Of a DNA stretch of 45,053 nt, positions 1 to 42,967 are shown one piece after another; positions within the stretch are counted from its first letter, which is position 1; every line of letters starts with the position of its first letter. The DNA comes from Escherichia phage vB_ecoS_OzMSK, in the sequence record PQ659294.1; one strand, given 5' to 3'. The notes below the pieces were generated by a model that was not told the DNA's origin, searched no databases, and saw only the letters and a list, made by a program, of their open reading frames with translations. The translations under genes were made by a program, and so were the position numbers.

Positions 1-119
1 AGCAATATTGCTTCAGATGCAATGATGTTTTTGATTGTTGCGGATTGAGCAATTAAGTGGTGAGTGAGTGAATGAAAGATGGATGGACTACCATACAAGT
101 TGATTTTGATTCTTGCTAA

Positions 120-460
120 GCTACTTTCACGCATACACGTTATAAAAGTTATGCCGTGTAGATGCGCCAGCTCCCCGTTGGAATCATGTACGTCTATCAC
201 GCTAAATTACGCAATGGTTACATAATAATATCTATATATATCAACCATTTAGTACTATTATTATTATTATTATTATATACGCGTATATAATGTATATAGT
301 GGATATTGGATATTGCGATAGTTTTCTATGATTTTTTCCTACAAGTGTAGGAATTGGATGACACTGTAGGAATAAATAGGCATATATGGGCCAATGCTCC
401 ATGAAAGCCGATGTACAAGCTATACGCAGTGGTTACATTGAGCTATATCTGGGGTTTGGA
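120..460. repeat. AT-rich repeat region with palindrome ATATACGCGTATAT and (TTA)6; diverged copy of 25840..26150
   Basis: See the paired region; (TTA)6 at 258..275. Confidence 0.6.
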
Positions 461-571
461 ACTGAAAAGCGTAAATAAATTGAATTCAACCATAAATAAC
501 AATTGATAACATGTAACCTCAATGATACCATGCACCCATCTTAACGAGAGCAACCAATCAGGAGTATATCT

Positions 572-1093
572 ATGTCAAATCGCATTCAACCAGTAAGCCT
601 TGGTGATGTTATCCGCTACATGGCTAAGCAGGCACTTAAGGCCGACAACAGGACTTTTCATGCTCCAATCAATCTTATAGCTCGCCAGGTTTACGGGCTA
701 ACGTCTGATGATATGGGTCGAATCAGCGCTGAGGATCTAGATAGTGGTGGCAAATACAGCCTGGCAAAGCTGAAGGCTTCATATGTCTCTAACACGGTTG
801 CCAGGATGCCAGAAATTCAGGCGGCGAACGTTCGGGCTAAGCTGTCAATCAAGGACGGAGACTTCGGGGATGATGTTGATGTTCGATGCGCATACATCAC
901 CTTGGTTGATGGGGCAATACAAACGGGAAGGAGAGTTAAAGCCAACAATCAGATTGCACAGAATGCGGTGAACGACTTCAAGGATAGAATCCTTAAGCTG
1001 ATGCCATCTGTGACAGATTTTGAAGGAGATGAGATTACAGGAGCAATCAAAGCAATCAAGATGTACCAAGAAATGATTAAGGAGACAAAATAA
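572..1093 (+). CDS. hypothetical protein (173 aa)
   Basis: Long ORF with RBS-like AGGAG 7 nt upstream of ATG; no recognisable motif. Confidence 0.55.
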   Translation: MSNRIQPVSLGDVIRYMAKQALKADNRTFHAPINLIARQVYGLTSDDMGRISAEDLDSGGKYSLAKLKASYVSNTVARMPEIQAANVRAKLSIKDGDFGDDVDVRCAYITLVDGAIQTGRRVKANNQIAQNAVNDFKDRILKLMPSVTDFEGDEITGAIKAIKMYQEMIKETK

Positions 1094-1512
1094 TGGGGAT
1101 GTTTGATTTTAACGAAGATAAGCTGACTGATGATGAGATTATGAAGATTGCCATGCGGGACGGGCTTCCACCGCTGCGGGTTGCTATCAATGCCAATGGC
1201 TATCGGTAATCACAGAGATTCTGGTGCAGTGTTGAGGAGTTGCTAAGCACAAAACTCAGCAGTAAGTTAGGTGTGGTTGTGCGCAAGATTCACGGTCAGA
1301 GCAGGAATGGTAAAGGGGTTGTAGGTATTCGATCAACATACGAAGTGCTGAGAAAGGTCCAGCCATTTGCAGGACTCGGCGGGGTCATGTATGACATGAA
1401 AAACAACATCCTGCCATCGCTACAGGACGCGGGAATCATCTGCTTAATAGGGGATAAGATTTACGTTCATCCATACGTAGTGGGCATGCATGCGATAGAA
1501 GTTGAAGAGTAG
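1093..1512 (+). pseudogene. internally deleted, stop-interrupted remnant of a paralog of the 527-aa P-loop protein (41384..42967, minus)
   Basis: Single reading frame 1093..1512 with one in-frame TAA at 1207..1209; N-terminal 38 aa (MGMFDFNEDKL...LPPLRVAINANGYR) and C-terminal ~75 aa (NGKGVVGIRS...CLIGDKIYV) match the N- and C-termini of the 527-aa protein; the central ~400 codons are missing. Confidence 0.5.
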
Positions 1513-1640
1513 TGCAAAGACTGGGATGAAGGTGAGCGCGCTAGTAGACTACCATACCACTTGCGGTACAGTGAGGAAGAGGTGGAGAAGGCCATCGAGT
1601 TCTTCCGGAAAGCGAAAGCTCTCCTGAATGGTGAATATTA

Positions 1641-1856
1641 ATGCTTATAAAATGCGTTTACGTAAGGCAAGCCAATAGCCACAACCTTTCAGTTGTAAAT
1701 GGCGGGATATACGTAGCTAAGCCAATACCTTGTTTTAATGGCTCATACCACATCAAGATTGATGACAATGAGTACATAGTAAAGACGGTAGGTGAAGCCC
1801 TCATGATAAAGAGCCTAGGTATCATAATGGCTAAATTCGAAATCGTTAGCAAATAG
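1641..1856 (+). CDS. hypothetical protein (71 aa)
   Basis: ORF; stop TAG lies inside the first promoter-like motif copy. Confidence 0.4.
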   Translation: MLIKCVYVRQANSHNLSVVNGGIYVAKPIPCFNGSYHIKIDDNEYIVKTVGEALMIKSLGIIMAKFEIVSK

Positions 1857-1896
1857 CACGAATTGCTAAACAATGGATCGGGTAGTCAGCTATGAT
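1851..1896 (+). promoter_or_regulatory. class-A promoter-like cassette (AAATAGCACGAATTGCTAAA, ~22 nt, TATGAT)
   Basis: Inverted repeat TAGCA-N5-TGCTA followed at conserved spacing by a -10-like hexamer and a conserved leader; same architecture recurs about 15 times. Confidence 0.5.
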
Positions 1897-1926
1897 TACC
1901 CCATCGACAACAAAGAGGAAATTAAG

Positions 1927-2115
1927 GTGATTAACCTAACTGATGATGAGTGCATTGCTGTAATAAAGGTTTCTAAGTTGATGAGTCAAAGATTTGACAC
2001 GCTTTCACTAAAGCATGGTTTTGCCTGGGAGATTTTTGATGATCATGTCAACCTGGATGACTTCATGTCAGCATCTATTAAGATTAAAGAATATATAAAA
2101 GAGGTGAGTGAATAA
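1927..2115 (+). CDS. small protein, member 1 of a tandem paralog trio (GTG start; the track ORF 1873..2115 starts inside the promoter cassette)
   Basis: Leader aligns with other cassette leaders (..caaagaggaaattaagGTG); N-terminus INLTDDE resembles MITINLSEE and MITINLSDK of the next two genes. Confidence 0.4.
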   Translation: MINLTDDECIAVIKVSKLMSQRFDTLSLKHGFAWEIFDDHVNLDDFMSASIKIKEYIKEVSE

Positions 2116-2116
2116 G

Positions 2117-2308
2117 ATGATTACTATCAACCTGTCAGAGGAGATGGCTGCCGACCTTCTTGATTCGCTAAGCCTGGTCAAAATTCGCTACGGAACTTAC
2201 CACAGAAGCGAATCAGTAAAGGAGGTGGTAAAGCAAGTTAAGCAGCAGGTCGGAGTGGTCAAGATCGAATTGCAGAACACCCCATACGATTTTAAGAAAG
2301 GTGAATAA
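2117..2308 (+). CDS. small protein, tandem paralog 2 (63 aa)
   Basis: ATG 2117 preceded by gaggtgagtgaataag; N-terminus MITINLSEE. Confidence 0.5.
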   Translation: MITINLSEEMAADLLDSLSLVKIRYGTYHRSESVKEVVKQVKQQVGVVKIELQNTPYDFKKGE

Positions 2309-2309
2309 G

Positions 2310-2528
2310 ATGATTACAATTAACCTGTCAGATAAGCAAGCAGCAGAACTGAAGTCCATGCTGTCAATCTTTGAGAAGCCAAATGACCGAGCAATTTCAA
2401 AAGAGGTTATTACTCAAATCAACAACCAGCAATTCGACGTAAGTGACTTCGAGTCATCACGACAGTACGAGGCGCTTAGCGTCAATGCGGCATACCTGAC
2501 TAATTGGGATAAGGCGACTAATAAATGA
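2310..2528 (+). CDS. small protein, tandem paralog 3 (72 aa)
   Basis: ATG 2310 preceded by near-identical aaggtgaataag; N-terminus MITINLSDK. Confidence 0.5.
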   Translation: MITINLSDKQAAELKSMLSIFEKPNDRAISKEVITQINNQQFDVSDFESSRQYEALSVNAAYLTNWDKATNK

Positions 2529-2754
2529 TTCTAAATGTTGATTTTGCAAGCTCCAGAGCTTGTAATATTTTGGATTCCGACGCGGCATGAAGTTGATTGC
2601 TGTAGTAAACGAACGCGGAATCCTCACAGTTAAATAACCGAAGACTGGCGTGCATATGCACGTAAAAGAAAATGGCGGAAGAGTTTTTATCAGATCAATG
2701 TCTGGTGAAACAATGGTAGCATCCTCAAAAATATAAGTACAAGGCGAATAAGAA

Positions 2755-2898
2755 ATGATTTACATCCATACATACTACACTGGTAAGTTTAACAGCGTTA
2801 AGCACGTTCGAGTGTACGAGGGGTTTCATAAAGCATTTGAGCAGCAGAGGGTTCTTGGTGGAACTATTAAGTGGTGTGAAGTTGTCAAAGAATGCTAA
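2755..2898 (+). CDS. possible small protein (~47 aa)
   Basis: ORF below the track cutoff; start context gaataagaaATGATTTAC resembles the paralog trio starts; stop in motif copy 2. Confidence 0.25.
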   Translation: MIYIHTYYTGKFNSVKHVRVYEGFHKAFEQQRVLGGTIKWCEVVKEC

Positions 2899-2942
2899 AT
2901 AGCACGAATTGCTAAACGCAGTCGCCACGGATGGCATATAAT
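2897..2942 (+). promoter_or_regulatory. class-A promoter-like cassette (motif, then TATAAT at 2937..2942)
   Basis: Consensus motif and -10-like hexamer at the conserved spacing. Confidence 0.5.
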
Positions 2943-2972
2943 TACCCAGTCAACACAAAGAGAGATTGAGAA

Positions 2973-3143
2973 ATGTTAACGATAATGATGACTAACCTTG
3001 AGTTAAATGAATTCAGCATTCTAGCTTTTATTATGCCAATACTGCTAATTCTTCCATTCGCTGCGTACGTCGTAATGAAAGATAATGCAGAGTGGAAGCG
3101 GATTGATAAGAAAATCAAAGAAGCAACGCACAGGAATAAGTAA
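2973..3143 (+). CDS. small membrane protein (56 aa, one hydrophobic helix)
   Basis: ORF below the track cutoff; sits at the conserved distance after the cassette leader; hydrophobic segment FSILAFIMPILLILPFAAYVV. Confidence 0.35.
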   Translation: MLTIMMTNLELNEFSILAFIMPILLILPFAAYVVMKDNAEWKRIDKKIKEATHRNK

Positions 3144-3707: not shown

Positions 3708-3785
3708 GCTCCGCTAGCTCAATTGGATAGCAGCAACGACCTTCTAAGTCGTAGGTTACTGGTTCGAGGCCAGTGCGGAGCGCCA
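3708..3785 (+). tRNA. tRNA-Arg, anticodon UCU, with encoded CCA
   Basis: Hand-folded cloverleaf: acceptor GCTCCGC/GCGGAGC (7 bp), U8, A14, GG in D-loop, anticodon stem ACGAC/GTCGT with loop CTTCTAA, 5-nt variable loop, T-stem ACTGG/CCAGT with loop TTCGAGG, discriminator G, CCA. Confidence 0.7.
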
Positions 3786-25036: not shown

Positions 25037-25082
25037 ATAGTATCGCATCCTTGCGATCAGTGTTTAGCAATTCGTGCTATTT
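25037..25082 (-). promoter_or_regulatory. class-A promoter-like cassette inside the 3' end of the methylase gene, ahead of the lipoprotein gene
   Basis: Minus-strand AAATAGCACGAATTGCTAAA then TACTAT at the conserved spacing; the motif encodes the methylase C-terminus INSTNC and its stop. Confidence 0.5.
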
Positions 25083-25790: not shown

Positions 25791-25835
25791 ATAATACAGC
25801 CGCCGCTGCGGAATGTCTTTAGCTATTCGTGCTAT
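25791..25835 (-). promoter_or_regulatory. class-A promoter-like cassette upstream of the methylase operon
   Basis: Minus-strand AATAGCACGAATAGCTAAA then TATTATTACC and a conserved leader. Confidence 0.5.
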
Positions 25836-25839
25836 TGTA

Positions 25840-26150
25840 TACGCGTAATCGATGTAACTCGATGTATACAATTTCATCCGCGGAAAATGGTATACGCGCT
25901 GTTACGCCAATTTACGCATTAGTTACATTGAAATATCTATATATATCAACCTTTTACTCTTATTATTATTATTATACATATTACTGTGTATATCATGTAA
26001 CTACTTCTATAGAGCGTTCCGGTTATAATTTTAATATCATGTGGATTTATACAGTATTGCGTGGCAGCTATACTAATGCACCCCCTGCAAGAAACGGTAT
26101 ACACGATATACACGATGGTTACATTTAGCTATAGCTGGGATGAGATGCCA
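25840..26150. repeat. AT-rich repeat region with palindromes (TACGCGTA, GTATAC) and (TTA)n; diverged copy of window region ~120..460
   Basis: Shared blocks ACGCA(A/T)TGGTTACAT...ATATCTATATATATCAACC...TTATTATTATTAT and GGTTACATT(G/T)AGCTATA(T/G)CTGGG in both regions. Confidence 0.6.
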
Positions 26151-26495: not shown

Positions 26496-27461
26496 ATGAG
26501 CTTTAAAGTTTTTACGAGAAATGAGCTAAGCAACGAGGCTTACCACTCTGAGACTGATCACATCTCAGGATCCTCACTTGTCGAGATTATTCAGGGTTCA
26601 CCAGCCAAGTGGAAATTCAAGCAGCGCAATAGCGATAGCAAGGCTCTTAAGTTTGGCACCCTAAGCCACACGATGATTTTAGAGCAAGATGTATTTGATA
26701 AAGAATACCTTCGAGCTACAGACCTTGACGCGATTGAAGGATTAATTACAAGCCAGGCTGGACTGTCGGCAGCACTTAAAAAAAATGGCGTGGCTGGCAC
26801 GTCCGGGAAGGGCTGTAGCGAGCTCGTGGAGATGATGTACAGCTCTGGCGAGGATTGGCCTGTTAAATGGCTAATTGAGCAGCAGGAGAGCGCTCAAGCG
26901 CTTGTGGAGGGTAAGGAGCTAGTTAGTGCCGCTGACTACGATAAAGTTGTGGCTATGCGTGAGGTTCTTTGCAATATACCGGCATATAATGCAATCGTGA
27001 ATAGTGAGACAGCACAAAAAGAGCTATCAATATTCGGTGAGATTCTTGGTGTCGGCGTGAAGATTCGAATTGACCACGTTGACGTTGTTGATGGGGTGGT
27101 AATGATCAACGATTATAAAACTACCGCAGACGCAAGCCCGGAAGGGTTTGGTAAATCGGCATTCTCGCACGGATATCTTGCAAAAATGGCATTGCAGCGA
27201 GATCTGTTTGTGAAGGCATTTAACGAGAAGCGCAAGGTTGTTGTGGGATTACTGGCACAGGAGAAGGTAGAGCCATACTTGCCAATGCGATACACGCTAA
27301 CAGATGAACAGCTACGAATCGGTAGATTGCAGTATCTTGAGGCGCTTGCCACTTACAAGAAGTGCAAGGAGCTTGATATCTGGCCTGGCTACTCAAATGG
27401 CATTACAGAGCAAGAGCTATTGGTTCCTGAGTGGGCATTAAAACAATACAAAGAAATCTAA
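26496..27461 (+). CDS. PD-(D/E)XK-type exonuclease (putative recombination exonuclease)
   Basis: 321 aa; candidate nuclease motif D..INDYK (RIDHVDVVDGVVMINDYKT); immediately upstream of Erf-like and SSB genes. Confidence 0.5.
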   Translation: MSFKVFTRNELSNEAYHSETDHISGSSLVEIIQGSPAKWKFKQRNSDSKALKFGTLSHTMILEQDVFDKEYLRATDLDAIEGLITSQAGLSAALKKNGVAGTSGKGCSELVEMMYSSGEDWPVKWLIEQQESAQALVEGKELVSAADYDKVVAMREVLCNIPAYNAIVNSETAQKELSIFGEILGVGVKIRIDHVDVVDGVVMINDYKTTADASPEGFGKSAFSHGYLAKMALQRDLFVKAFNEKRKVVVGLLAQEKVEPYLPMRYTLTDEQLRIGRLQYLEALATYKKCKELDIWPGYSNGITEQELLVPEWALKQYKEI

Positions 27462-27505
27462 ATAGCACTAATTGCTAAAAACAAAATTGAAAGATTGGGT
27501 ATGAT
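27460..27505 (+). promoter_or_regulatory. class-A promoter-like cassette (AAATAGCACTAATTGCTAAA, then TATGAT)
   Basis: Motif overlaps the upstream stop codon; -10-like hexamer at the conserved spacing. Confidence 0.5.
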
Positions 27506-28847: not shown

Positions 28848-31298
28848 TTAATAAATATTTACATCTGGAGAAATTCCAACGCAAGTCCAGCGCGAGAACT
28901 TGGCATCATAAACGAATGACATTCCAATTTGTCTCCCCTCAGATGGAGTTGTGAATGAGCCAACTCTAAACTTATTGCTAAATGAAACGGATGGACGCCG
29001 GCCGCCTGAAAGGTTGTAAATTATGAAGTCTATCCTCTGTGCATCTCTTGCGTTATCCTGAACATCAATAACTACAGGACTTGAATCAATTACAACGGTT
29101 GCAAGACTTGTTCTTAGTGGGTTAAATAGAATACTACCACCAGATAGCTGAACCCTTTTTTGAACGGGGTTAGAAGAATCCGTGTACAACCCTGTGTTTA
29201 TATTATACAAAGCCTCCCATGAATTCAGTTTTGAGTCATCAATCACTGTTGCATGCTGCCCAAATAGTATAGTCCCTTCTACATGGTTTCCTGAAGCTCC
29301 ATTATAAAAATCAAAACCAGAAGCTGATCCACCAACAAACCTATTAGCTCTAGCTCCGTTAACTTGAATTGATGGAGACTGAAAACCTGACTTCAGGCCA
29401 TTGAACAAGTTTCCTGTCGCCGTCTTCCTAAGAACGACGTCACCACCAGAGTTGACCTCAAGGTCGCAACCAATAACAGTGTTAGTTACTGCTGTTATGC
29501 CTAGGTCTGACTCATGACCGAAAGAAAACCCATACTTATTTCCCTCGCTGGTTCCACCAATAAATGTCGTATTACTGCAGAATGTAGCCTCAATTCCTGA
29601 TTCTGTTACATGCTCGCAAGTTGGGTTAATAAAAAGATCTGCAGATGTGCCGCGGAAGTTCACAGCGCCAGCCTCTGCGTCAATTAATATGCCGTACGTA
29701 GGCGTCGTTGTGAAGGTCTCAACGTTACCAGAGCACACAAAGTTATTATGCACGCATAGCTGAGTCCACCAGCAGTGTAAACCAGCCCTTCTAATGTTCG
29801 TAGCCATTAGGTTGTCAAAGCATGATGATATGACACCCCTTAATGAAAAGCCATCACTAGCATACCCATTCCCATCGACAATGATGTTGCTCATATATGA
29901 GTTGTATGCCCAATAATCTAGGTTTACATCCCTATGATCCATTTGGATGACGTAATCATGAGGTCCGCTAGTTAGTGAGATTCTTGCGCCTTTCTCACCG
30001 ATAATTGTTGCTGGCCTCAGAAAGTTTAATGGCTGAGATGTAAGATAATTACCTTTAGGAATATGTATAGCAATAGCGTTGTTTCTAGATGCCTCAACAG
30101 CGGCAAGCAATGCCTGAGTATCATCTGTTACACCATCACCAACAGCGCCAAAGTCCTTCTTAATATCGACATGAGTAAGTAAAGCGTTTACCTCTGGCTT
30201 TGAGTAAACATCAAGATTTGTTCTTGCTGCTGACTTATTTGCAACATCAGAGAAATTCAATGATTTTTGAAAAGTCTCATTTTTTGAATAAACATCAAGA
30301 TTTGTTCTTGCTTCTGACTTATTTGCAACATCAGAGAAATTCAATGATTTTTGAAAAGTCTCATTTTTTGAATAAACATCAAGTAAGTTTCTAGCCCTCG
30401 ATGCCGTAGCTCCACCTCCGGACTTGCCAGCCTCAACCATCACCATTTCCCTACCTGGTGCATAAACCCTGCTTCCGGGCGCTCCCACAAACTGAATGTA
30501 AATCTCCCTGCTATACTGGTTGCTTGTTGAAGATTGGCCTACAACTCGCAAGGAGTGCGTGGTTGTATTGCTTGACTTTGATATTACCTGAATGCATAAA
30601 GCAGCAATTGATGTTCCAAATGTTGAGATTATGTCATTTGGAGCATTTATCATTGATGAAACGTTAACCATATAAAGGCCACCGGATTTAAAAACAAATT
30701 CCTGCCAATCAAAATTGCTTATCAATGGCGTAGTGTCTGTCGCCAATCCATATCCGGCAAGAGTTACCAACGTTCCGGCATCCCCGGCGTTATTAATTGC
30801 TTTAATCGTCTGATCTCTTGCTGCAGTGGTCGTGTCTCTTGCACTAATAGCAGTAGCGGCGCTCTCTTCGGCAGCAATCTGGCTAGCAAGAGCCTCAGCA
30901 GCTCCAGTGGTGGATTGTTTTGCAAGCTGCTCGAAGAGAGGCCAGTCGAAAGTGTCTTGACCAATAAATTGCAACAATCCTTCGATTGATGTCTCCTTTG
31001 ACTGGTAGTAACGCAAAGTCTCTGCTACATCCTGAGCCAACCCCTGAACGGTAATTCCATCGTGCGCAAGAATTGCATAACCAGTTCCGGAAGGAACAGT
31101 TTCAGAGTTAGGGTTGTAAACATTAATCTGAGTATCGCTGATGATTTCAGAGATGGTATAAATCTTCAGGGGGCTGGTTTTAAAAATAATGGTTGCACCT
31201 ACGCGAATAAGTGTAAGCGGTGCTTTCCATGTTGTACCCACGCCAGTTACCTCGCCATTTGCGGCCAGCGACGCTGTTCCTAAGTCATAAATTGCCAT
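28848..31298 (-). CDS. lateral tail fibre / tailspike with right-handed beta-helix (pectate-lyase-like) domain
   Basis: 816 aa from ATG 31298 (GGAG RBS); motif DIKKDFGAVGDGVTDDTQAL typical of pectate-lyase-type tailspikes; internal 28-aa tandem repeats. Confidence 0.75.
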   Translation of the reverse strand: MAIYDLGTASLAANGEVTGVGTTWKAPLTLIRVGATIIFKTSPLKIYTISEIISDTQINVYNPNSETVPSGTGYAILAHDGITVQGLAQDVAETLRYYQSKETSIEGLLQFIGQDTFDWPLFEQLAKQSTTGAAEALASQIAAEESAATAISARDTTTAARDQTIKAINNAGDAGTLVTLAGYGLATDTTPLISNFDWQEFVFKSGGLYMVNVSSMINAPNDIISTFGTSIAALCIQVISKSSNTTTHSLRVVGQSSTSNQYSREIYIQFVGAPGSRVYAPGREMVMVEAGKSGGGATASRARNLLDVYSKNETFQKSLNFSDVANKSEARTNLDVYSKNETFQKSLNFSDVANKSAARTNLDVYSKPEVNALLTHVDIKKDFGAVGDGVTDDTQALLAAVEASRNNAIAIHIPKGNYLTSQPLNFLRPATIIGEKGARISLTSGPHDYVIQMDHRDVNLDYWAYNSYMSNIIVDGNGYASDGFSLRGVISSCFDNLMATNIRRAGLHCWWTQLCVHNNFVCSGNVETFTTTPTYGILIDAEAGAVNFRGTSADLFINPTCEHVTESGIEATFCSNTTFIGGTSEGNKYGFSFGHESDLGITAVTNTVIGCDLEVNSGGDVVLRKTATGNLFNGLKSGFQSPSIQVNGARANRFVGGSASGFDFYNGASGNHVEGTILFGQHATVIDDSKLNSWEALYNINTGLYTDSSNPVQKRVQLSGGSILFNPLRTSLATVVIDSSPVVIDVQDNARDAQRIDFIIYNLSGGRRPSVSFSNKFRVGSFTTPSEGRQIGMSFVYDAKFSRWTCVGISPDVNIY
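30199..30385. repeat. 84-bp direct tandem repeat (two copies plus a partial third) inside the tail fibre gene
   Basis: AAACATCAAG recurs at 30206, 30290 and 30374; copies differ at about one position; encodes ARTNLDVYSKNETFQKSLNFSDVANKSE twice. Confidence 0.85.
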
Positions 31299-31318
31299 TG
31301 TGTAAATTCTCCATTTGT

Positions 31319-31338
31319 AAAATAGCACGAATTGCTAA
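31319..31338 (+). promoter_or_regulatory. class-A motif copy in plus orientation, 21 nt upstream of the minus-strand tail fibre start
   Basis: AAATAGCACGAATTGCTAAG; the only copy oriented against the adjacent downstream gene. Confidence 0.4.
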
Positions 31339-31363
31339 GTTGGATTGTAGCATCTTTCAGGCA

Positions 31364-32337: not shown

Positions 32338-32383
32338 ACTATACACAATGTATAGCGCCACTGTTTATCAATTCGTGCTATTT
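32338..32383 (-). promoter_or_regulatory. class-A promoter-like cassette upstream of primase
   Basis: Minus-strand AAATAGCACGAATTGATAAA then TATAGT; motif overlaps the stop of the upstream gene. Confidence 0.5.
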
Positions 32384-32860
32384 CCCTTGCTCTTTAGCTT
32401 TTCGCGCTGCCTCGTTAGCGGCCTTAATCTTGCGCCATGATCGACACTCTGTCTTGGTGGCTAATTCAGCCTCAGTAACAACACGCAGCATGTGACGCTT
32501 TTTGCAACGAAGAGTTAGCGGCTTCCCGTTACCGTCGAATTGCAAATCTGGTCGGCAGAATGTGGCGCGAAAACCTTCTCCATTTCGCTTGTAGTAGTTG
32601 TGCGACAGCTGGGCGCCACGTGCCGATATCATGCCGCGCTTAAACCATTGTTCTACAGCCTGTGGTGTTACCTTTAACTGCTTTGCGATATTCGCCTTTG
32701 TGCCGAAGAAATCAAGAACTATCTCCAGGCGTGCCCGTAACCCTGCTCTTACTTCATCCTTTAAAACGTAGTAACCTGAAGGTCGTTTACGTTGCTTTTT
32801 GTCTTCAGTGCGGATAGTTCCGTTGTTGCCGTTAATGGTTCTCTTGTCGACTGTATTCAT
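32378..32860 (-). CDS. putative DNA-binding protein (160 aa, basic, HTH-like segment)
   Basis: Highly basic; segment IAKQLKVTPQAVEQWFKRG resembles a helix-turn-helix. Confidence 0.4.
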   Translation of the reverse strand: MNTVDKRTINGNNGTIRTEDKKQRKRPSGYYVLKDEVRAGLRARLEIVLDFFGTKANIAKQLKVTPQAVEQWFKRGMISARGAQLSHNYYKRNGEGFRATFCRPDLQFDGNGKPLTLRCKKRHMLRVVTEAELATKTECRSWRKIKAANEAARKAKEQGK

Positions 32861-32961
32861 CTTATTACCTCAATAGCATTTTTTGTTAAAAGTAATTCTG
32901 ATTTGATGTTAGTATTGTACTTAATTGAACGCTACAAGACAATTTTTATAGGAGTTTAGAT

Positions 32962-34956
32962 ATGTTGCCTATCGAGAAGCTGGTTGCAAACTTCGATAAA
33001 GAAAGAATCAAGCAGATTCAGAAAGATTACCAGTTTGGCGAGATAACCCCTTACGAATTCCAGTGCGTTACATTTGACGTAATTGGGAAGGCTATTGGCA
33101 AGTACGAAGCGCCATTTATCGCAGACCTTTCCGTATCGGCTGGTAAGACAATCATTCTTGCTATGATTGGAAAGCGAATGGAGCAGCTTGGTCTTCCTTA
33201 TATGGTTCTCTCTCGCCAGTCAGAGATAATCAGCCAGAACTCAGAAGAGCTTCGTAATTTCGGGATCCGTAACAGCGTATATTGCGCTGGCCTTAACGTT
33301 AAATCAGTTTACTACCCAACCATAGTTGCTAGCGAAGGAACTGCGGCTAATGGCTTATTTAAGGGGCTTGGTGACTATGTTCCTGCCGTTATAGCTATAG
33401 ATGAATGTCACATGCTTGATACCATAGATATTGTGGAAGCCGAAGAGAATGAAGAAACATTTGAGCAAATGAGCACAAAGAAGGGCGAGATGGTTTTTAA
33501 GGATGGCGTTAATACTGGATTGCTTGGTACTGGTCGTGCGCAGTACACGCTAATAATCACTGAGATGAAGCGTCGCTGCCGTGAAAAATACGGGCGGGAG
33601 CTTCGTATATTCGGCCTTACTGGTAGCCCTTATCGAAACAATGACCATATCGTCGTCAGCAATCCAAACATCCGTGGGTTCTGGCGAAAAGCTGTGATTC
33701 ATGTTCCAACAAATTACCTTGTTGATTTGGGATTCGTGGTTCCTACTGTTTATGGCGAGGTTGGCGATTTAGGTTATGACCTTAGCGAGTTTGTTCCAGA
33801 CGGTAGTGATGGCGTGAAAGACTTTAGCAGAAAAGAAATGGATGCAATGGTCGCAAAGATTCACGACAACCAAACCATGACACAAAAGATAATGCAGTTT
33901 GTCGTCAAAATACTGGAGACTCGCAACGCCGCATTGGTCACCTGCGCCGGAAAACTCCATTGCAGCGAAGCGGCTTCCGCACTGCCTGACGGATACCCTT
34001 ACGCTATTATCACCGATTCTACCGGAGAGAGGAAGCGCAGAGAGATTCTTGCAGATTGCCAGACTGGAAAGTACAAGATTATCTTTCAGATTGGATGTCT
34101 AACCACGGGTGTAAACCAACCGCTGTGGGATACTAGCGTCATACTACGCAAGATTGGCAGTCTAACCTTAATGATTCAGCTTCTTGGTCGTGGCATGCGA
34201 AAACTAAAAAAGGCGCACATAGATGCTGGGTTCAAGAAGGAGGACCACTTGGTATTAGACTTTGCCGGAGCGCTTGATGACATGGCAGAGCTTTACTTTG
34301 ACCCGATAATTGAAGAGATTCAGGCTGAAAAGTTTAAAACATCAAGGAGGAGTGGTGATGAGGTTCGCCAGTGTCCGCAGTGTGGATATGATAACTCGCC
34401 ATTTGCTCGACGCTGTAGCAATAAGATTAATGGCGTTAGATGCGATCACTTTTTCCAGTTCACAACATGTGAGGATATTACCGACCAACAAACAAAGGCG
34501 GTAATCAAGAAAGGTTGTGGAACTAAAAATGACATAGCAGCAAAAGTTTGTCGTGAATGCGGAGAAATGCTTAAAGACCCAAACGCTAACCTGACTGGAA
34601 AGATGTATCGTCGCGGAGACTATTTGCGTGTTTATGACTTCCAGGTTGGATTAAGCAAAAATAAAACTGGTATAGTAGTTAAGTATAATATCATGGCGCA
34701 CAACGGAGAGAGGTTTAACGCGTGGGAGTTCTTTAACCCAGAATCAGACCATAGGGTTTGTAGTGTGCTTTGGAAAAACTTTTGCCTTGCTCACATTGAA
34801 AATCGCGCTGAAGCAGCACGGATTGGTAAAATTCGTAACGCAAAAATGATTATGATGAATGTAGATAAATTCCGTGCTCCAGTGCAAGTTACACACAGGA
34901 AGAACGGAAAGGGGAAGGATGTGATCGCATACAAGAATTTTGGAGAATTGAAATGA
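32962..34956 (+). CDS. SF2 helicase (DEAD/DEAH-like) with C-terminal Cys-rich zinc-ribbon region
   Basis: Walker A SVSAGKT, Walker B-like IDECHML, paired CxxC motifs (CPQCG, CRECG). Confidence 0.75.
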   Translation: MLPIEKLVANFDKERIKQIQKDYQFGEITPYEFQCVTFDVIGKAIGKYEAPFIADLSVSAGKTIILAMIGKRMEQLGLPYMVLSRQSEIISQNSEELRNFGIRNSVYCAGLNVKSVYYPTIVASEGTAANGLFKGLGDYVPAVIAIDECHMLDTIDIVEAEENEETFEQMSTKKGEMVFKDGVNTGLLGTGRAQYTLIITEMKRRCREKYGRELRIFGLTGSPYRNNDHIVVSNPNIRGFWRKAVIHVPTNYLVDLGFVVPTVYGEVGDLGYDLSEFVPDGSDGVKDFSRKEMDAMVAKIHDNQTMTQKIMQFVVKILETRNAALVTCAGKLHCSEAASALPDGYPYAIITDSTGERKRREILADCQTGKYKIIFQIGCLTTGVNQPLWDTSVILRKIGSLTLMIQLLGRGMRKLKKAHIDAGFKKEDHLVLDFAGALDDMAELYFDPIIEEIQAEKFKTSRRSGDEVRQCPQCGYDNSPFARRCSNKINGVRCDHFFQFTTCEDITDQQTKAVIKKGCGTKNDIAAKVCRECGEMLKDPNANLTGKMYRRGDYLRVYDFQVGLSKNKTGIVVKYNIMAHNGERFNAWEFFNPESDHRVCSVLWKNFCLAHIENRAEAARIGKIRNAKMIMMNVDKFRAPVQVTHRKNGKGKDVIAYKNFGELK

Positions 34957-35372
34957 ATATTACAGACAAAGTTGATTACATTGAGTTTTACCCGGGCCCG
35001 GTTAAGTCATGTCCTAAAGAGGATGACGAACAAATCTTTTGTTCTGATTGGGTTAAGTATAACTACCCGGATATGGTATTTTTCCACTGCGTGAATGAGG
35101 GTAAGAAAACCATTGGTCAAGCAAGAAAGGACCAGGCTAAAGGATTGCTTAAAGGGGTTTCGGACTGCTTATTCCTTATACCTGAATCACTGCGAGGCAA
35201 ATACCCATTTGGCGCTATAGAGCTAAAGAGAGCAGGTAAAACGCAAGCTAGCCCAGTTAGCGATGAGCAGAAGTCATTCCTAAAAAGCGTAAGAGAATCA
35301 GGTGGCTTCTCCGCAGTAGCCTATGGCAGAGGTGGCTTTCTTGCAGCATTCGCAGAGATGATTCGAAAATAG
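34953..35372 (+). CDS. VRR-NUC domain nuclease (PD-(D/E)XK fold)
   Basis: 139 aa; motif DCLFLIPE...GAIELKRAGK matches the D..E.K signature; ATGA overlap with helicase. Confidence 0.55.
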   Translation: MNITDKVDYIEFYPGPVKSCPKEDDEQIFCSDWVKYNYPDMVFFHCVNEGKKTIGQARKDQAKGLLKGVSDCLFLIPESLRGKYPFGAIELKRAGKTQASPVSDEQKSFLKSVRESGGFSAVAYGRGGFLAAFAEMIRK

Positions 35373-35412
35373 CACGAATTGCTAAAGACGAATCGGTGAG
35401 GTGGTGTATTAT
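35367..35412 (+). promoter_or_regulatory. class-A promoter-like cassette (first of a tandem pair)
   Basis: AAATAGCACGAATTGCTAAA then TATTAT; downstream ~165 nt has no plausible ORF. Confidence 0.5.
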
Positions 35413-35576
35413 CAACTCATCGAAACGAAACACTCACAAAAAAGGTGAGAAGTTGCAAACGTAGGCCGGAGCAACGAAAGACGTTTCAAAATATGATGTG
35501 ACAAACCCATGAGAAAGGAAGTTGCAAACGTAGGCCGGAGCAACGAAAATCACATCATAATAAATTATAACTTAGT
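35413..35576 (+). ncRNA. candidate small non-coding RNA or iteron region with two copies of a 29-bp element
   Basis: AGTTGCAAACGTAGGCCGGAGCAACGAAA at 35451..35479 and 35520..35548; each is an inverted repeat GTTGC..GCAAC around GGCCGG; no ORF longer than 8 codons. Confidence 0.3.
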
Positions 35577-35622
35577 AAATAGCACGAATTGCTAAAGAGG
35601 AATCGGTGAGGTGGTGTATTAT
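35577..35622 (+). promoter_or_regulatory. class-A promoter-like cassette (second of the tandem pair)
   Basis: Near-identical to 35367..35412 including GAATCGGTGAGGTGGTGTATTATCA. Confidence 0.5.
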
Positions 35623-35658
35623 CACTTCATCGAAACGAGACGCAGAGAGAGAAATAAA

Positions 35659-35853
35659 ATGTCTACTATCTTTACTGGTAAAATCTACGAATCACGCAAA
35701 ACTGGTTACGAGTATGAATTAGTAATCACCGCTGATGGTTATGTTCTTGACGATGGTGAAGGTTATTCTTTCGAAGTCAGCCCAACCTACAAAGATGATT
35801 TAGAAACTGTTAAAAACGAATTTGGCGAAAAATTTGATGAGATATCTGAATAA
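35659..35853 (+). CDS. hypothetical protein (64 aa)
   Basis: ATG 35659 after conserved leader; the track start 35611 lies inside the promoter element. Confidence 0.45.
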   Translation: MSTIFTGKIYESRKTGYEYELVITADGYVLDDGEGYSFEVSPTYKDDLETVKNEFGEKFDEISE

Positions 35854-36071
35854 TGCAAATCTTAACCTTTGACAAACAATGGGAGCTATTTCAGGCAATG
35901 GCGGTTCAGGAGCTACACAATGCTGGTTATAAAGGTGACTCATGGTTTTTAGCAGGATGCCTTGATTACAGCTTTGAAGAAGATTACTTGCGAACGGACA
36001 TCGAAACATGGCGCGAACGCATGGTTGCAGACATTGCAGAAATGAAGAAAGATATCCCGGAGGATTTTTAA
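35853..36071 (+). CDS. hypothetical protein (72 aa)
   Basis: TAATG stop-start overlap; acidic. Confidence 0.45.
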   Translation: MQILTFDKQWELFQAMAVQELHNAGYKGDSWFLAGCLDYSFEEDYLRTDIETWRERMVADIAEMKKDIPEDF

Positions 36072-36073
36072 CA

Positions 36074-36199
36074 ATGAAAATCGTAGATAAAGAGATTTTC
36101 CAGATTGCTCAAATTTATGCGAAGCAAGCAGTTAGAGATAATGACAATTATTGCTGGATGCTAGCAAAAGAGTATATAAAAATGGCTTATGGCTTATGA
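36074..36199 (+). CDS. hypothetical small protein (41 aa)
   Basis: ATG 36074 with GGAGGA RBS. Confidence 0.3.
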   Translation: MKIVDKEIFQIAQIYAKQAVRDNDNYCWMLAKEYIKMAYGL

Positions 36200-36444
36200 T
36201 AGTTGAAACCGGACGAGACGCAGTATGGGCGCACTGTGGAGAGGCGGGGTTGCAGGATGACATTAAGCAGATATCCCGCTTCTTTGACATAAAAGATATC
36301 AGCGTTGTGTTTAATGGTAAATTCTCTTACATGGATGAGCGACCAAGAAAATACGTAAGAGTTAAGCCAGGTGTGAGAATTGATGTTAATGAGTTCCTTA
36401 AATCAAAGGGACTCAAGTTTAAGATAACGAATCCTAAGGATTGA
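36196..36444 (+). CDS. hypothetical protein (82 aa)
   Basis: ATGA overlap with the upstream ORF. Confidence 0.4.
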   Translation: MIVETGRDAVWAHCGEAGLQDDIKQISRFFDIKDISVVFNGKFSYMDERPRKYVRVKPGVRIDVNEFLKSKGLKFKITNPKD

Positions 36445-36446
36445 TT

Positions 36447-36593
36447 ATGAAGCCACAAGAATATTCAGCATTGGTTAACGGGTTGCTTGATATTTCTATA
36501 AAATTCAAGGACACGCAGCAGTTAAGAGAGCAGCTATCGCGAGAACTATCAAGGCATGGTATTAGGCCGAGACATAAGATGAAAAAGGATTAA
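36447..36593 (+). CDS. possible small protein (48 aa)
   Basis: ORF below the track cutoff, tightly packed between neighbours. Confidence 0.25.
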   Translation: MKPQEYSALVNGLLDISIKFKDTQQLREQLSRELSRHGIRPRHKMKKD

Positions 36594-36595
36594 AC

Positions 36596-36847
36596 ATGTT
36601 GGGTTTAGATTTTCAGCCAGATCATTATGATTTAGTTCATGGCAGTAGCGGTGCTAAGTTTAGGGCGATACCTATTGCTGATTGGTTCCCACCTGATTAT
36701 GTGGATGTTAATGCTAAGACGAAGGATGGTAAGTGGGTACATATTTACTACTCGCCAGCTTGCGGTAATCTATGCATGACAGACCTGGACCAGAAATTAG
36801 CAATTAGTGCGGATTTAATTGATTATTGGTTGAAAGAGGTTGTATGA
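36596..36847 (+). CDS. hypothetical protein (83 aa)
   Basis: ORF with AAGGA RBS. Confidence 0.45.
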   Translation: MLGLDFQPDHYDLVHGSSGAKFRAIPIADWFPPDYVDVNAKTKDGKWVHIYYSPACGNLCMTDLDQKLAISADLIDYWLKEVV

Positions 36848-36928
36848 AGTACGCCGCCCTAGTAGCATTAGTACCACTGTTTAGCTTTACTATCTTATAT
36901 TTTATCGTGATGAACTAAGGACTTAAAA

Positions 36929-38059
36929 ATGGCAGTAGCAAAGATTACCAACGAGCAGCTTATCGAAGAGTTGAAAAATGGCATGACTAACAAGGCGATT
37001 GCAGAGAAGTATGGCATGAACATTCGCAACGTCGAGCTTCGTCGCAGCAAGTTGGCTAAGAGTGGAGTTGGGCATGGTAATGAGGGTATCAATAAGCTAG
37101 TACCGGATGGATATTTAGTCAAGGGCACTTCAACCATGATTGATGCGGAAGGGAATGAGAAGCTGCGCTGGGTTAAGACGAGCGTTGATAATGAGCGCCT
37201 TGAGGTTTTAATGGAGCAAGCTCGAGAAGCGTTTTGCTCTGAGTTGCCAAAGGCAGATTCGGTCAACCACTCAGGTAATGAGGTCAATTCTGAATTAATG
37301 ACTCTTTACCCGATTTTCGATATCCATATCGGCATGATGGCTCATCGACATGAGTCTGGTGAAAATTATGACACGAACACAGCAGAGAAATTGATGGGGT
37401 CATATTTTGACCATGCAATTTCTGTATCACCAGCCTCGGAGAAAGCCGTGATTTTAGTTGGCGGCGACTTCCTTCACTCTGATGGACTGGAGGCTGTAAC
37501 CCCAGCAAGCGGACACTGCCTTGATCAAGATAGTCGATATGCCAAGTTAGTTTATGTAGCAATTCGATCAATTCGCGGTGCGGTAGAGAAGATGCTTAAG
37601 AAACACAAGGAGGTCGAGATTCAAATCATAGAGGGCAATCATGATCAAAGTGGTATGATTTGGCTTCGCGCTGCAATGGCTGCATTTTATGAAAGAGAGA
37701 GTCGAGTGTTTGTTGATACCAGTCCGGCAATCATGCACAAGACGCGATTTGGCTCAACATTACTTGGTTACACGCACGGTCACACGATGAAGAAAGCCGA
37801 GGGTCGACTAGCAGCAATGGCGACCGACTACCGCAAAGACTTTGGTGAATGTGAGTTTGTTTACTGCCACTCCGGCCATTTCCATCATGCAACTGTTACA
37901 GAGTGCACTCTTGGGATTGATGAAGTCCACCCTGCACTTGCTAGCAAGGATGCATATGCGGCACGGGGAGGGTGGAGATCATATCGACAAGCGGCTGCAA
38001 TTATTTACCACAAGAATTTTGGCGAGGTTGGTCGACACATTTATCGCCCAGGTATGTAA
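36929..38059 (+). CDS. metallophosphoesterase (calcineurin/Mre11-SbcD-like motifs) with N-terminal HTH-like domain
   Basis: Motifs FDIHIG (D-x-H), GGDFLHSDG (GD), EGNHDQ (GNHD), YTHGHT (GH); N-terminal MTNKAIAEKYGMNIRNVELRR resembles a sigma70-region-4/LuxR-type HTH. Confidence 0.55.
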   Translation: MAVAKITNEQLIEELKNGMTNKAIAEKYGMNIRNVELRRSKLAKSGVGHGNEGINKLVPDGYLVKGTSTMIDAEGNEKLRWVKTSVDNERLEVLMEQAREAFCSELPKADSVNHSGNEVNSELMTLYPIFDIHIGMMAHRHESGENYDTNTAEKLMGSYFDHAISVSPASEKAVILVGGDFLHSDGLEAVTPASGHCLDQDSRYAKLVYVAIRSIRGAVEKMLKKHKEVEIQIIEGNHDQSGMIWLRAAMAAFYERESRVFVDTSPAIMHKTRFGSTLLGYTHGHTMKKAEGRLAAMATDYRKDFGECEFVYCHSGHFHHATVTECTLGIDEVHPALASKDAYAARGGWRSYRQAAAIIYHKNFGEVGRHIYRPGM

Positions 38060-38133
38060 ATAGTACTTTTTGTTAATAAAGCCTCAAAGGATTGAGGCAA
38101 AATGAATAAACGATAAAGAGATGAGGAATTGTA

Positions 38134-38607
38134 ATGATTTACGTATTTGATATCGATGGAACTATAGCTAATAATGAGCATAGAAGTAACCTCTTGCCAT
38201 TCAGCGACCTTCACTTGACTTCAAGTTGGAAGGATTACAATAAAGCCTGTTCTGGAGACTCACCAATAATTCCAATGATAAACATGATGAATACGTTATC
38301 CGACTCATCGCCAGTTTACATCATGACCTCAAGAAGTGATGAAGTTGAATGGAGGACTCTTGAGTGGCTTAAGGATAATGAGGTTGAGTATGATTCGATA
38401 TACATGAGAAGTCGATATGACAACCGAAAAGATTACAAAATAAAAGAGGAATGGCTTAATGAAATCAGTGGTGGCGATAAAAGCAATGTGATTATTTTTG
38501 AAGATAACCCACAAGTAATTAAGCACCTAAGAAGTTGCGGATACACCGTTATGGCTGTATGTGAATATGAAGACCTACCTAAAGACTGCGAATCTCACGG
38601 AGAATGA
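38134..38607 (+). CDS. HAD-family phosphatase (putative nucleotidase)
   Basis: N-terminal HAD motif I VFDIDGTIA; 157 aa; adjacent to the dNMP kinase gene. Confidence 0.5.
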   Translation: MIYVFDIDGTIANNEHRSNLLPFSDLHLTSSWKDYNKACSGDSPIIPMINMMNTLSDSSPVYIMTSRSDEVEWRTLEWLKDNEVEYDSIYMRSRYDNRKDYKIKEEWLNEISGGDKSNVIIFEDNPQVIKHLRSCGYTVMAVCEYEDLPKDCESHGE

Positions 38608-39161: not shown

Positions 39162-39166
39162 TAAAG
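39147..39166 (+). promoter_or_regulatory. class-A motif copy (AAATAGCACAAATTGATAAA) overlapping the kinase stop
   Basis: Motif variant followed by the conserved leader ..ACATCGAAACGAG.. Confidence 0.4.
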
Positions 39167-39232
39167 ATAATAATAAAAACTTAGTTATCATTAACACATC
39201 GAAACGAGATTAACTAAACGAGGAAACACAAA

Positions 39233-39409
39233 ATGACTAAAATGATTTATTGCACCAAAAACAACTCCAAGACTCTGCCATTTACAGTTAACCAGCCGTA
39301 CAACGCAGAGTACCAGGGCGATGGATATTACAAGATTTATGGAGACGATATGACGCACATCTTAGCGCCGATTGATGGTTCGTTGGTTGAATTTATTATC
39401 GCTGACTAG
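39233..39409 (+). CDS. hypothetical small protein (58 aa)
   Basis: ATG with GAGG RBS after a class-A cassette, followed by a strong terminator. Confidence 0.4.
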   Translation: MTKMIYCTKNNSKTLPFTVNQPYNAEYQGDGYYKIYGDDMTHILAPIDGSLVEFIIAD

Positions 39410-39435
39410 CGCAGCAAAAACATAATGTTACGAAC

Positions 39436-41383: not shown

Positions 41384-42967
41384 TCACCCCAGCAGTCGTG
41401 GATTAATGTAAACTTTATCACCAATCAGGCACGTATAGTTTTTCTCATCAAGCATTGGTAGTAAGTGGTCTTTAATCTTCGTCATTACTCCCGCTTGACC
41501 CTCGAACGGCTTAACCTTGCGAGCAGCTTCATATAGAGACCGGATGCCTACTACGCCTTTCCCATTTTTTACTTGCTTAATCAGAATATCAATCAGCTTA
41601 TTCATCTCTGCATTGTCGCCAGCGTGACCCGCAGCGTTGGCAGATGACAAATAAGTCTTGCTAAGTTCCTGGAACATAATTACAGCTTCCTGCATTGTAT
41701 CAAGCTCAATTTCTCTCGACTTCTGAGGGCTACCGCCATTTGGGTTGAACCAGTTACGCACAGTGTGAAGAACCGCCGCAATCCTGATTGCCTGCTTATC
41801 GAACTTACCCAACGCGCCTCGCAACATTGTGTGTGAATACTTCCCGCCGTCAGCAAGGTGCGGTTCCATTTCCTGACGAGCGCGGTTGAGATATTTCATT
41901 GCTGAATTACTAACTGTCAACTTAACTTCTTGCTCATTCATTATCTCGTGAACTAAACGGAAGTAATCAGCCTTCAACCCGGCATCAATTGGCTCATAAG
42001 TCGATTCGCCATTTTCATCAACGAATACACGCTCGCCCAGGAGTGACTTTTCACGTACAAGCAGGAAACGCTCAGATACACCGATACCACGCGCGCCAGC
42101 GTTCATGATAGCGTTGATTGTCTCATCCTGCGCAATTACAGAGATGCAACCCATAGCTACGAAGCTCATGTTGTTTTCAGCGTTAGCACGAGCGATAGAT
42201 ACGTTGCCAGCATCCCATGCCTTCAGTACAAGCTCGCTGTTCGTTTTCTTTGATCCGTCACCATAGGTCATGCCAAGTAGTGAGTTTACACTCGTTGCCT
42301 CATCCGAGATTACTGCAAAGTTACCCTGACGATTGTTTATTCGCGCAAGACCTTCCGGTGTGGTATCTGAAACCGGGAAAACGATATCGCATAGTTTCTC
42401 GAGCTTTTCCTCAAGATCTTCTTTCTCCTCAAAAAGCGATTTCATCTCAGATGGTGACTTTTCCTGCTTCATCTCTTTGGATAACGCAGATAGTTTAGCC
42501 ATAATCTTTTTGCGCTCGCGCTTTCGAACTTCATTCAGTCGCTGAGTCTCGGCAATCATTGGCGCAATAGAAAGTGAGTTAATTGCTGATTTACCAGTCG
42601 ATGGTGGCTGACTCGTTACGACGTAAAGCGAGGTTGGCTGCTGAGTTCCGTGATACTCTACGGTAAAACGTCCAAGCATGGCAGCGGAAATACACCCCAG
42701 GAAGTGCATGTATGCGGACGACTCCGGGAATTGCACGCTCCGAGCAATGTTAGCTGACAGCTTACCAACAACATCAATATCATTTCCGAGTGATATTACA
42801 GGGTACTTATCATTTGCCGCATCAATCTCGACAGGAGCCTTCCAGAATGATTGAGACTGGCGATAGCCATTTGCATTAATAGCGACGCGCAAAGGTGGAA
42901 GGTTGTCTGCGGCAGCAATTGCCATAACCTGTTCAACAGATAGTTTATCTTCGTTGAAATCAAACAT
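41384..42967 (-). CDS. P-loop NTPase of unknown function (527 aa; possible replication-associated ATPase)
   Basis: Walker A-like PPSTGKS and Walker B-like AVISDE; GGAGAG RBS; N- and C-termini are paralogous to the remnant at 1093..1512. Confidence 0.55.
   Translation of the reverse strand: MFDFNEDKLSVEQVMAIAAADNLPPLRVAINANGYRQSQSFWKAPVEIDAANDKYPVISLGNDIDVVGKLSANIARSVQFPESSAYMHFLGCISAAMLGRFTVEYHGTQQPTSLYVVTSQPPSTGKSAINSLSIAPMIAETQRLNEVRKRERKKIMAKLSALSKEMKQEKSPSEMKSLFEEKEDLEEKLEKLCDIVFPVSDTTPEGLARINNRQGNFAVISDEATSVNSLLGMTYGDGSKKTNSELVLKAWDAGNVSIARANAENNMSFVAMGCISVIAQDETINAIMNAGARGIGVSERFLLVREKSLLGERVFVDENGESTYEPIDAGLKADYFRLVHEIMNEQEVKLTVSNSAMKYLNRARQEMEPHLADGGKYSHTMLRGALGKFDKQAIRIAAVLHTVRNWFNPNGGSPQKSREIELDTMQEAVIMFQELSKTYLSSANAAGHAGDNAEMNKLIDILIKQVKNGKGVVGIRSLYEAARKVKPFEGQAGVMTKIKDHLLPMLDEKNYTCLIGDKVYINPRLLG

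Follow-up and report, generated by a model that had tools for sequence, protein, structure and literature searches.

The window analysed here is a stretch of 45,053 nucleotides (nt) from Escherichia phage vB_ecoS_OzMSK (PQ659294.1), which megablast identified as a rotation of the 45,053-bp record MW057918.1, that of Escherichia phage Msk, an Rtp-like member of the Drexlerviridae. A short gene near its first position, hereafter called the mini gene, resembles both ends of a replicative helicase gene and is interrupted by two stop codons. The features of the two genes and of the region between them are given below in window positions (aa, amino acids).

1093..1641, plus strand: mini gene of Msk; 183 codons in one frame with two nonsense codons; family PHROG 7327; orthologue of FP_0002, JK_46 and bas03_0065.
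1093..1206, plus strand: N-module, 38 codons (MGMFDFNEDKLTDDEIMKIAMRDGLPPLRVAINANGYR); homologous to helicase residues 1-36; matches phrog_7327 positions 1-36, E=1.4e-18.
1207..1209, plus strand: first premature stop, TAA followed by T; CAG, CAA or CAT/CAC in relatives.
1210..1509, plus strand: linker and C-module (one helix and a winged-helix domain); homologous to helicase residues ~453-527.
1510..1512, plus strand: second premature stop, TAG, in place of an invariant Trp codon; TGG in 26 of 26 aligned relatives.
1513..1641, plus strand: in-frame tail (..SRLPYHLRYSEEEVEKAIEFFRKAKALLNGEY, then TAA); matches phrog_7327 positions 141-179, E=5.5e-6; severed from translation by the TAG.
41384..42967, minus strand: parent helicase gene, intact, 527 aa; DUF3987, MCM-like (superfamily 6, SF6) replicative helicase with a C-terminal winged helix.
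572..1093, plus strand: DUF7174 gene (PF23796; rtp1 homologue), Pfam E=1.3e-50; directly upstream of the mini gene.
1..571, no strand: right half of a divergent control region between the leftward helicase and the rightward DUF7174 and mini gene early operons; continues from 44923-45053.

The mini gene and the helicase gene were placed at opposite genome ends by an initial annotation made from the sequence alone, an arrangement that proved to be an artefact of the cut point. Window positions 1-3000 correspond to 36772-39771 of MW057918.1 and positions 41000-45053 to 32718-36771 (megablast), and window positions 1 and 45053 are the neighbouring record positions 36772 and 36771. Msk is packaged by a headful mechanism from a pac site, its DNA is terminally redundant and circularly permuted, and PhageTerm placed the start at record position 36,862, or window position ~91 (PMC8421802); from these packaging data and this start it follows that the window uses the T1/Rtp numbering convention. 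Across the junction the helicase start (42967) and the mini gene start (1093) are 3,178 bp apart and the two genes are transcribed divergently. Open reading frame (ORF) maps showed an intergenic region of ~700 bp between the helicase operon and the operon of the DUF7174 and mini genes, with a sigma-70-like site at 503-531. The same layout was seen in relatives whose records are not cut at that point. Terminal redundancy had been discounted, correctly: the copies stand in inverted orientation with an identity of just 75-79% over 53-128 nt, and the ends of the window are adjacent in the GenBank record. A fossil of recombination between genome ends had been suggested instead, that is, a decaying relic specific to this genome, and the copies do lie inverted near opposite ends of the window as given. 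This is scarcely credible, being refuted by synteny and the intact orthologues: the window is a rotation of a permuted, headful-packaged genome in which both genes neighbour the control region, the gene pair recurs across subfamilies with unchanged spacing and orientation and is intact in most of them, and the core-less architecture of the mini gene is under purifying selection.

The two-ended resemblance to the helicase is far beyond chance. By BLASTP, residues 3-50 of the frame 1093..1512 matched helicase residues 1-48 (32/48 identical, E=5e-19), and residues 69-131 matched helicase residues 465-527 (35/63 identical, E=3e-22). Profile-profile comparison (hhalign) lengthened the C-terminal match, aligning mini protein residues 57-131 with helicase residues 453-527 over 75 columns (probability 99.5%, E=3e-23). 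The hhalign result covers the C-module alone, and homology of the N-module relies on the BLAST and PHROG matches. At the DNA level the likeness was limited to the N-terminal part (96/128 nt, 75%, E=2e-19). The TAA at 1207-1209 aligns with helicase Gln37 (CAG), as had been proposed, and the mini gene lacks about 416 helicase residues (~49-464), Walker A (GKS 125-127) among them, in keeping with the earlier observation that the ATPase core with its Walker motifs is absent. The intact mini gene orthologues gave no match to Pfam DUF3987 (PF13148). Some tblastn alignments (query residues 69-161) ran past the helicase stop into the downstream gene; their translations were unconvincing and the apparent homology was dismissed as an extension artefact.

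The age of the duplication was assessed from an identity matrix of the first 126 nt. Mini genes were 67-87% identical to one another, helicase genes 69-94%, and mini genes were 62-78% identical to helicase genes; within the Msk genome the mini-helicase identity was 73%, not above the range between genomes. Recent gene conversion between the two genes was ruled out on that ground. Because the N-modules of mini genes and of helicases form separate groups across subfamilies, with no excess of identity within a genome, the matrix indicates a single old duplication with loss of the core and no continuing gene conversion, and the initial view of an old event is upheld. Among phages with helicases that are 91-99% identical, the mini proteins share 52-89% identity.

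Other parts of the initial description did not hold. The frame had been ended at 1512; the TAG at 1510-1512 is a premature stop, and the gene runs on to TAA 1639-1641. The gene had also been called decayed and internally deleted, when the layout without a core is that of a family, PHROG 7327, intact in more than 100 clusters. Intact orthologues matched PHROG 7327 end to end (E=1.9e-75), and both they and the Msk translation gave secondary matches to the helicase family PHROG 2373, confined to its two ends. A check for intact copies in relatives, which the initial annotation had proposed, found that in phages FP, JulesPiccard and JeanPiccard this locus holds an ORF of 175-181 aa without interruption; the family is also intact in P818 and AHP42, and is known under the names JK_46, FP_0002, bas03_0065 and SU57_0002. 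A search of 5.8 billion proteins gave 331 matches; of the 120 best clusters, more than 100 have full-length proteins (174-192 aa). The mini gene is present at 80% coverage or more in 106 GenBank phage records, and the helicase matched 826 records. The family is narrow: it forms about ten full-length clusters at 50% identity, and the other relatives recovered by an exhaustive profile search were Drexlerviridae-type helicases only. Scans of IMG/VR and JGI contributed 13 usable loci each, and most of the diversity came from Logan/ENA assemblies. The distribution over Braunvirinae, Rogunavirinae and Nouzillyvirus (Drexlerviridae) fits one old duplication.

The genomic setting is equally regular. 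In all 27 readable loci the DUF7174 gene lies directly upstream, free of stops, with its stop codon overlapping the start of the mini gene, and the Msk mini gene occupies the same position as in L001, L002, L004-L007, L009 and other compared loci, diverging from the helicase operon. Pairwise ratios of nonsynonymous to synonymous substitution rates (dN/dS) among family members were 0.12-0.45. Judged by its conservation, the layout without a core is a gene in its own right under purifying selection. Its presence nevertheless varies among close relatives, and because phage Rtp has the DUF7174 gene (rtp1) without the mini gene, the mini gene can be regarded as dispensable. We found no earlier description of PHROG 7327 as derived from the two ends of the helicase.

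Within this family the Msk allele is unusual for its stops and little else. The conceptual translation of Msk covers profile positions 1-179 of the 179 in phrog_7327 (E=3.1e-70) and is 86% identical to FP_0002 over 181 aa; the piece at 1240-1509 by itself matches positions 49-131 (E=5e-32), and past the TAG at 1510 the frame encodes the 42-aa tail common to all intact relatives. The uninterrupted ORF of ~174-192 aa typical of the family is broken in Msk by TAA 1207-1209 and TAG 1510-1512. Each stop is one base change away from a sense codon, CAA (as in the closest sequence, L007) to TAA and TGG to TAG. DNA alignment with FP, JulesPiccard and JeanPiccard showed no frame-shifting indels in 1093..1641. 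The conserved positions are all retained save W140, now a stop, and Y171F, which lies in the tail where Tyr is otherwise nearly invariant. Comparison of Msk with its nearest relatives gave dN/dS of 0.12-0.24 (dS ~0.5-0.6), no higher than between intact genes. The decay in the Msk mini gene is, on this comparison, limited to the two nonsense substitutions, and the marks of a long-standing pseudogene (raised dN/dS, frameshifts, loss of conserved residues) were not found.

Among the 57 FP proteins (of 68 annotated) with a match in Msk, the mini gene was the sole one with internal stops in Msk; FP_0066 was also flagged, merely for a stop three codons earlier at its C-terminus. Genome-wide poor sequence quality and dependence on a suppressor host were ruled out by the same survey. 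Given a frame free of shifts, a normal dN/dS and the confinement of internal stops to this one gene among those compared, the inactivation is judged recent, and we consider it very likely that the mini gene has been correctly identified and is a recent pseudogene in Msk. Its ATG at 1093 overlaps the DUF7174 stop (TAATG, 1091-1095), with AAGGAG, a good ribosome-binding site, at 1079-1084, 8 nt upstream; translational coupling to the DUF7174 gene is thereby kept, and the 38-aa N-module peptide is the sole product that would be expected with assurance. Re-initiation could occur at the in-frame TTG 1240, GTG 1273 and GTG 1279, where signals are weak. The authors of the Msk genome annotated the N-module as MSK_000060 (38 aa) and the C-module piece as MSK_000061, separate hypothetical ORFs without comment; together with the stretch that follows they can now be annotated as one recently broken gene.

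Two trivial explanations of the stops were considered. Sequencing or assembly errors in a gene that is really intact would account for a frame that is otherwise undamaged and resembles an intact gene, and the genome combined the output of several short-read assemblers (SOAPdenovo, SPAdes, ABySS, CISA), no polishing being mentioned, and was deposited as MW057918.1 in a GenBank record without annotation. Such errors are nevertheless improbable: both stops are substitutions and not homopolymer indels, they are the sole internal stops among the 57 comparable genes, independent isolates and three separate sequencing runs show equivalent stops at identical or neighbouring codons, and the gene calls of the Msk authors also split the gene there. 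Programmed read-through or suppression, yielding a full-length protein, is compatible with a frame that is intact and conserved on either side of each stop. The two stops, however, are of different types (TAA and TAG), each followed by T, and UAAU is a strong terminator in E. coli. There is also no conserved recoding signal, because relatives have sense codons at both Msk sites and the stops of other lineages are of other types and at other codons. The only tRNA of the phage, Arg(TCT) at 3708-3785, which the Msk authors also reported, is not a suppressor, and none of the 57 compared genes otherwise requires suppression. Read-through of this kind is most improbable.

In-frame stops recur in the gene in other lineages, mostly with no other break in the frame. 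A TAA at the codon following NGYR(H/S/Q) was found in L009-L011 (one metagenomic phage seen in three runs), in L022 (IMG/VR) and in isolate ETEP102, where it is a single TCA-to-TAA change relative to TH30; the same codon has changed from TCA to TAA three times, in the very different backgrounds of L009, L022 and ETEP102. In IME542 a TGA stands two codons before that site, and the linker contains a TGA in L012 (codon 52) and in L007 (codon 60). DTL, L042 and the 43 Veterinaerplatzvirus isolates, the last with a tail-less form of 140 aa, have their stops immediately ahead of the tail, and L039 has a stop inside the tail. Two clusters are apparent, one at alignment columns 35-38 (Msk, L009-L011, L022, IME542 and ETEP102) and the other at columns 140-151 (Msk, Veterinaerplatzvirus, DTL and L042). 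Clustering into two such short windows had P ~0.005 in a simulation weighted by stop-accessible codons and run before ETEP102 was added, a test made after the pattern had been seen and including three lineages that were found because they are truncated. In a sample of 36 lineages not picked for truncation, eight carried an interrupted mini gene (8/36), compared with 0/27 for the DUF7174 gene and 0/18 for the helicase (Fisher P=0.008 for 8/36 vs 0/27). Frameshifts besides the stops were present in L027 (IME542, MK372342; 1501-2032) and in L051, which are truly decayed, and several metagenomic fragments with only the N-module are frameshifted just after it. The family, as sampled here, spans intact, freshly interrupted and degraded states, and truncation after the N-module and loss of the tail seem, from this pattern, to be tolerated or favoured.

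One reading of this pattern is that the gene is split and not dead, with stops that fall between modules and pieces (the N-module of 38 aa, a winged-helix fragment made by re-initiation and perhaps the tail) that are still produced and still work, each by itself or assembled non-covalently. The clustering of stops from independent lineages after the N-module and before the tail favours it, as do the retention of the tail-less form by 43 Veterinaerplatzvirus isolates and the in-frame, conserved sequence past the stops with its normal dN/dS. Potential internal starts also exist: ETEP102 has a downstream in-frame ATG that its authors annotated as a second ORF, and gene callers choose GTG in L007, L009 and L012, to set beside the TTG and two GTG codons of Msk. 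Ribosome-binding sequences at these starts, however, are weak or badly spaced (in Msk a GAGGAG directly abuts the TTG), and the stops at codons 39-60 lie within confidently predicted helices and not in a disordered linker. The frameshifts in IME542, in L051 and in the N-module fragments speak of true decay, and the clustering test has the post hoc character described above. We regard a split, working gene as rather unlikely.

A second reading is adaptive loss, in which the full-length protein, or the winged helix with the tail, is harmful in some hosts, for example through sensing by a defence system, and truncated alleles are repeatedly selected; Msk, whose source was lysed E. coli C cultures, would then carry an escape allele. 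Nonsense mutation in a trigger gene is the usual phage escape from abortive-infection systems. The excess of independent nonsense changes in one non-essential gene over its neighbour, the presence of two stops in the Msk mini gene with none elsewhere in the compared genes, the threefold TCA-to-TAA change at one codon, and the presence of the gene in some close relatives and its absence from others would all be expected. Against this, no defence system is known to target the PHROG 7327 family, a literature search on Drexlerviridae escape mutants or defence triggers involving the mini gene returned nothing relevant, and a plain knock-out would allow stops anywhere in the first 130 codons and not mainly at codons 36-40. 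Adaptive loss is in our judgement unlikely, and somewhat less to be expected than a split gene. Repeated truncation at the same two boundaries is a lead that may reflect a host factor imposing a cost on the full-length protein.

A more specific possibility concerns the position of the first cluster. The first ~36 residues of the helicase might be a self-contained docking peptide of which PHROG 7327 proteins are decoys, with selection cutting the gene exactly where that peptide ends in at least five independent lineages: Msk, IME542, ETEP102 and a pair known from metagenomes, of which one was recovered in three sequencing runs. The outcome would be a free peptide of 35-39 aa without a winged helix, which could arise through sensing of the winged helix and tail by a host defence or through deliberate splitting of the gene into two products. 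This too is unlikely; if true, it would amount to a natural, repeated experiment that exposes an interaction motif in a little-studied class of phage replicative helicases.

A structure was predicted with AlphaFold2 for an intact orthologue, using 103 family members (predicted local distance difference test score, pLDDT, 84.6; predicted template modelling score, pTM, 0.70). The model, a confident one, consists of three short helices at 13-43, which correspond to the helicase N-terminus, two more helices, a winged helix at 76-125 (strands 76-78, 116-119 and 122-125; helices 79-86 and 98-112), a linker of low confidence at 144-150 and a tail helix at 161-178. The helicase model has a less confident stretch (residues 42-65) between the N-module and the core, an arrangement that would fit a tethered docking element.

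These results can be combined into a proposal for the history and role of the gene. The mini gene would have originated once, anciently, from an MCM-like DUF3987 helicase gene, retaining the N-terminal three-helix module and the C-terminal helix and winged helix with a short linker between them and gaining a helical tail of ~40 aa. Relatives carry it as an intact ORF of 174-192 aa with translational coupling to the DUF7174 gene; in Msk, the single-base changes from CAA/CAG to TAA at 1207 and from TGG to TAG at 1510 split the frame into three, and no full-length protein can be made. The intact protein may be an ATPase-less mimic of the terminal docking surfaces of the helicase, binding the partners of the helicase termini (DNA, primase or a loading partner) and so modulating helicase loading or replication initiation, in a role that would be dispensable and often lost or truncated. 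This mechanism is put forward tentatively and may well prove wrong. A truncated product that modulates the full-length protein, as suggested initially, would be a reasonable idea for the intact family protein; in Msk the 38-aa peptide is the one assured product. As a whole, the locus is probably best explained as the Msk allele of a conserved, helicase-derived accessory early gene that has recently been disabled.

Several observations weigh against that explanation. Simple dispensability predicts stops spread along the gene and they cluster at two sites, which suggests something more specific than neutral loss; two nonsense codons with almost no further damage are unusual for neutral decay; and Pfam, NCBIfam and a PDB sequence search returned no function for the mini protein, the PDB search also giving no match for the helicase. 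A gene that is split but still works, evasion of a host factor, and neutral loss of something dispensable could each account for the recurrent stops. The recently disabled accessory gene that we favour is, as a broken allele, ordinary, and the family-wide pattern and the link to the helicase termini are modestly interesting leads. An uncharacterised phage gene family is linked to both ends of an MCM-like DUF3987 helicase, those ends are marked as separable functional modules, and the family offers a cheap route toward the docking partners of the helicase.

The tail of the mini gene behaves differently from its body. Third-codon-position identity is 0.62-0.74 in the tail and 0.34-0.53 in the gene body. 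A 32-aa form of the tail (SRLPYHLRYSEEEVE..FYRKAKSLL) was also found detached, behind unrelated sequence, in three JGI/ENA contigs, L056 (~545-640), L057 (223-318) and L058 (1001-1096), and carries an in-frame stop in the last two. The detached tails and the high third-position identity would fit DNA-level constraint or a linker used in recombination. In many relatives the stop codon of the mini gene falls inside a motif, AAATAGCACGAATTGCTAAA, which occurs in eleven copies in the window against 0.02 expected by chance:

1851-1870, 2897-2916, 27460-27479, 31320-31339, 35367-35386, 35577-35596 and 39146-39165: copies of AAATAGCACGAATTGCTAAA.
25063-25082, 25818-25837, 32364-32383 and 44137-44156, minus strand: copies of AAATAGCACGAATTGCTAAA.

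In the ORF maps the strand of the copies appeared to match the local gene direction. Within the motif are a short palindrome (TAGCA-N5-TGCTA) and a TTGCTA resembling a -35 box, which is followed at 1867-1896 by a -10-like TATGAT. A role as phage promoter or operator, or as an element of module boundaries, is probable. The tail may double as a recombination or regulatory boundary, which would help to explain why stops are common just upstream of it.

Other features of the window were recorded. A 101-nt direct repeat, 78% identical, occupies 194-294 and 25899-25999; its first copy, which has a (TTA)n run rich in AT, is situated within the divergent control region close to the packaging start (~91). 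A gene of PHROG 2794 lies 3' of the helicase gene (40959-41294, minus strand), with counterparts in L001, L006 and L031; in JeanPiccard, Veterinaerplatzvirus and Rtp it is in the frame of the helicase and begins right after a double stop, and ~90 nt are inserted between the two genes in Msk and JulesPiccard. Two early-region ORFs of 66 and 75 aa (2108-2308 and 2301-2528) both start with MNKMITINLS and are 80% identical over their first 50 nt, which implies a local tandem gene duplication. At 30199-30366 an 84-bp unit is present twice in tandem (98% identical), an in-frame duplication of 28 aa inside an 826-aa ORF (28848..31328, minus strand); FP_0046, the FP homologue of that ORF, is conserved over the first 340 residues only, as expected for a variable gene of the tail-fibre type.

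Several known systems can be compared with the mini gene. The Msk copy shares with other members of PHROG 7327 the end-to-end profile match, the overlap with the DUF7174 gene and the divergent placement, and differs from them by its two in-frame stops. With the DUF3987/SF6 helicases that carry a C-terminal winged helix (Kazlauskas et al. 2016, PMC4889955; AgaPH, PMC11724360) the mini protein shares the N-terminal ~40 residues and the C-terminal helix and winged helix; unlike them it has no AAA+/P-loop core of ~416 residues, cannot be a helicase and evolves much faster. The winged helices of ORC, Cdc6 and MCM, which serve in origin binding and helicase loading, are just 10-14% identical to that of the mini protein, and since this fold is very common the match reflects a fold and not a shared function. 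The phiX174 A* protein, T7 gp4B and the Tn5 inhibitor protein are shortened, catalytically dead forms that regulate the full-length protein. Like these, the mini protein is a smaller protein sharing surfaces with a larger enzyme of the same genome, and by analogy it could compete with that enzyme or tune it. Those forms, however, are made from internal starts within the same gene, whereas the mini gene is a separate, old and divergent paralogue that has lost its middle and not an end.

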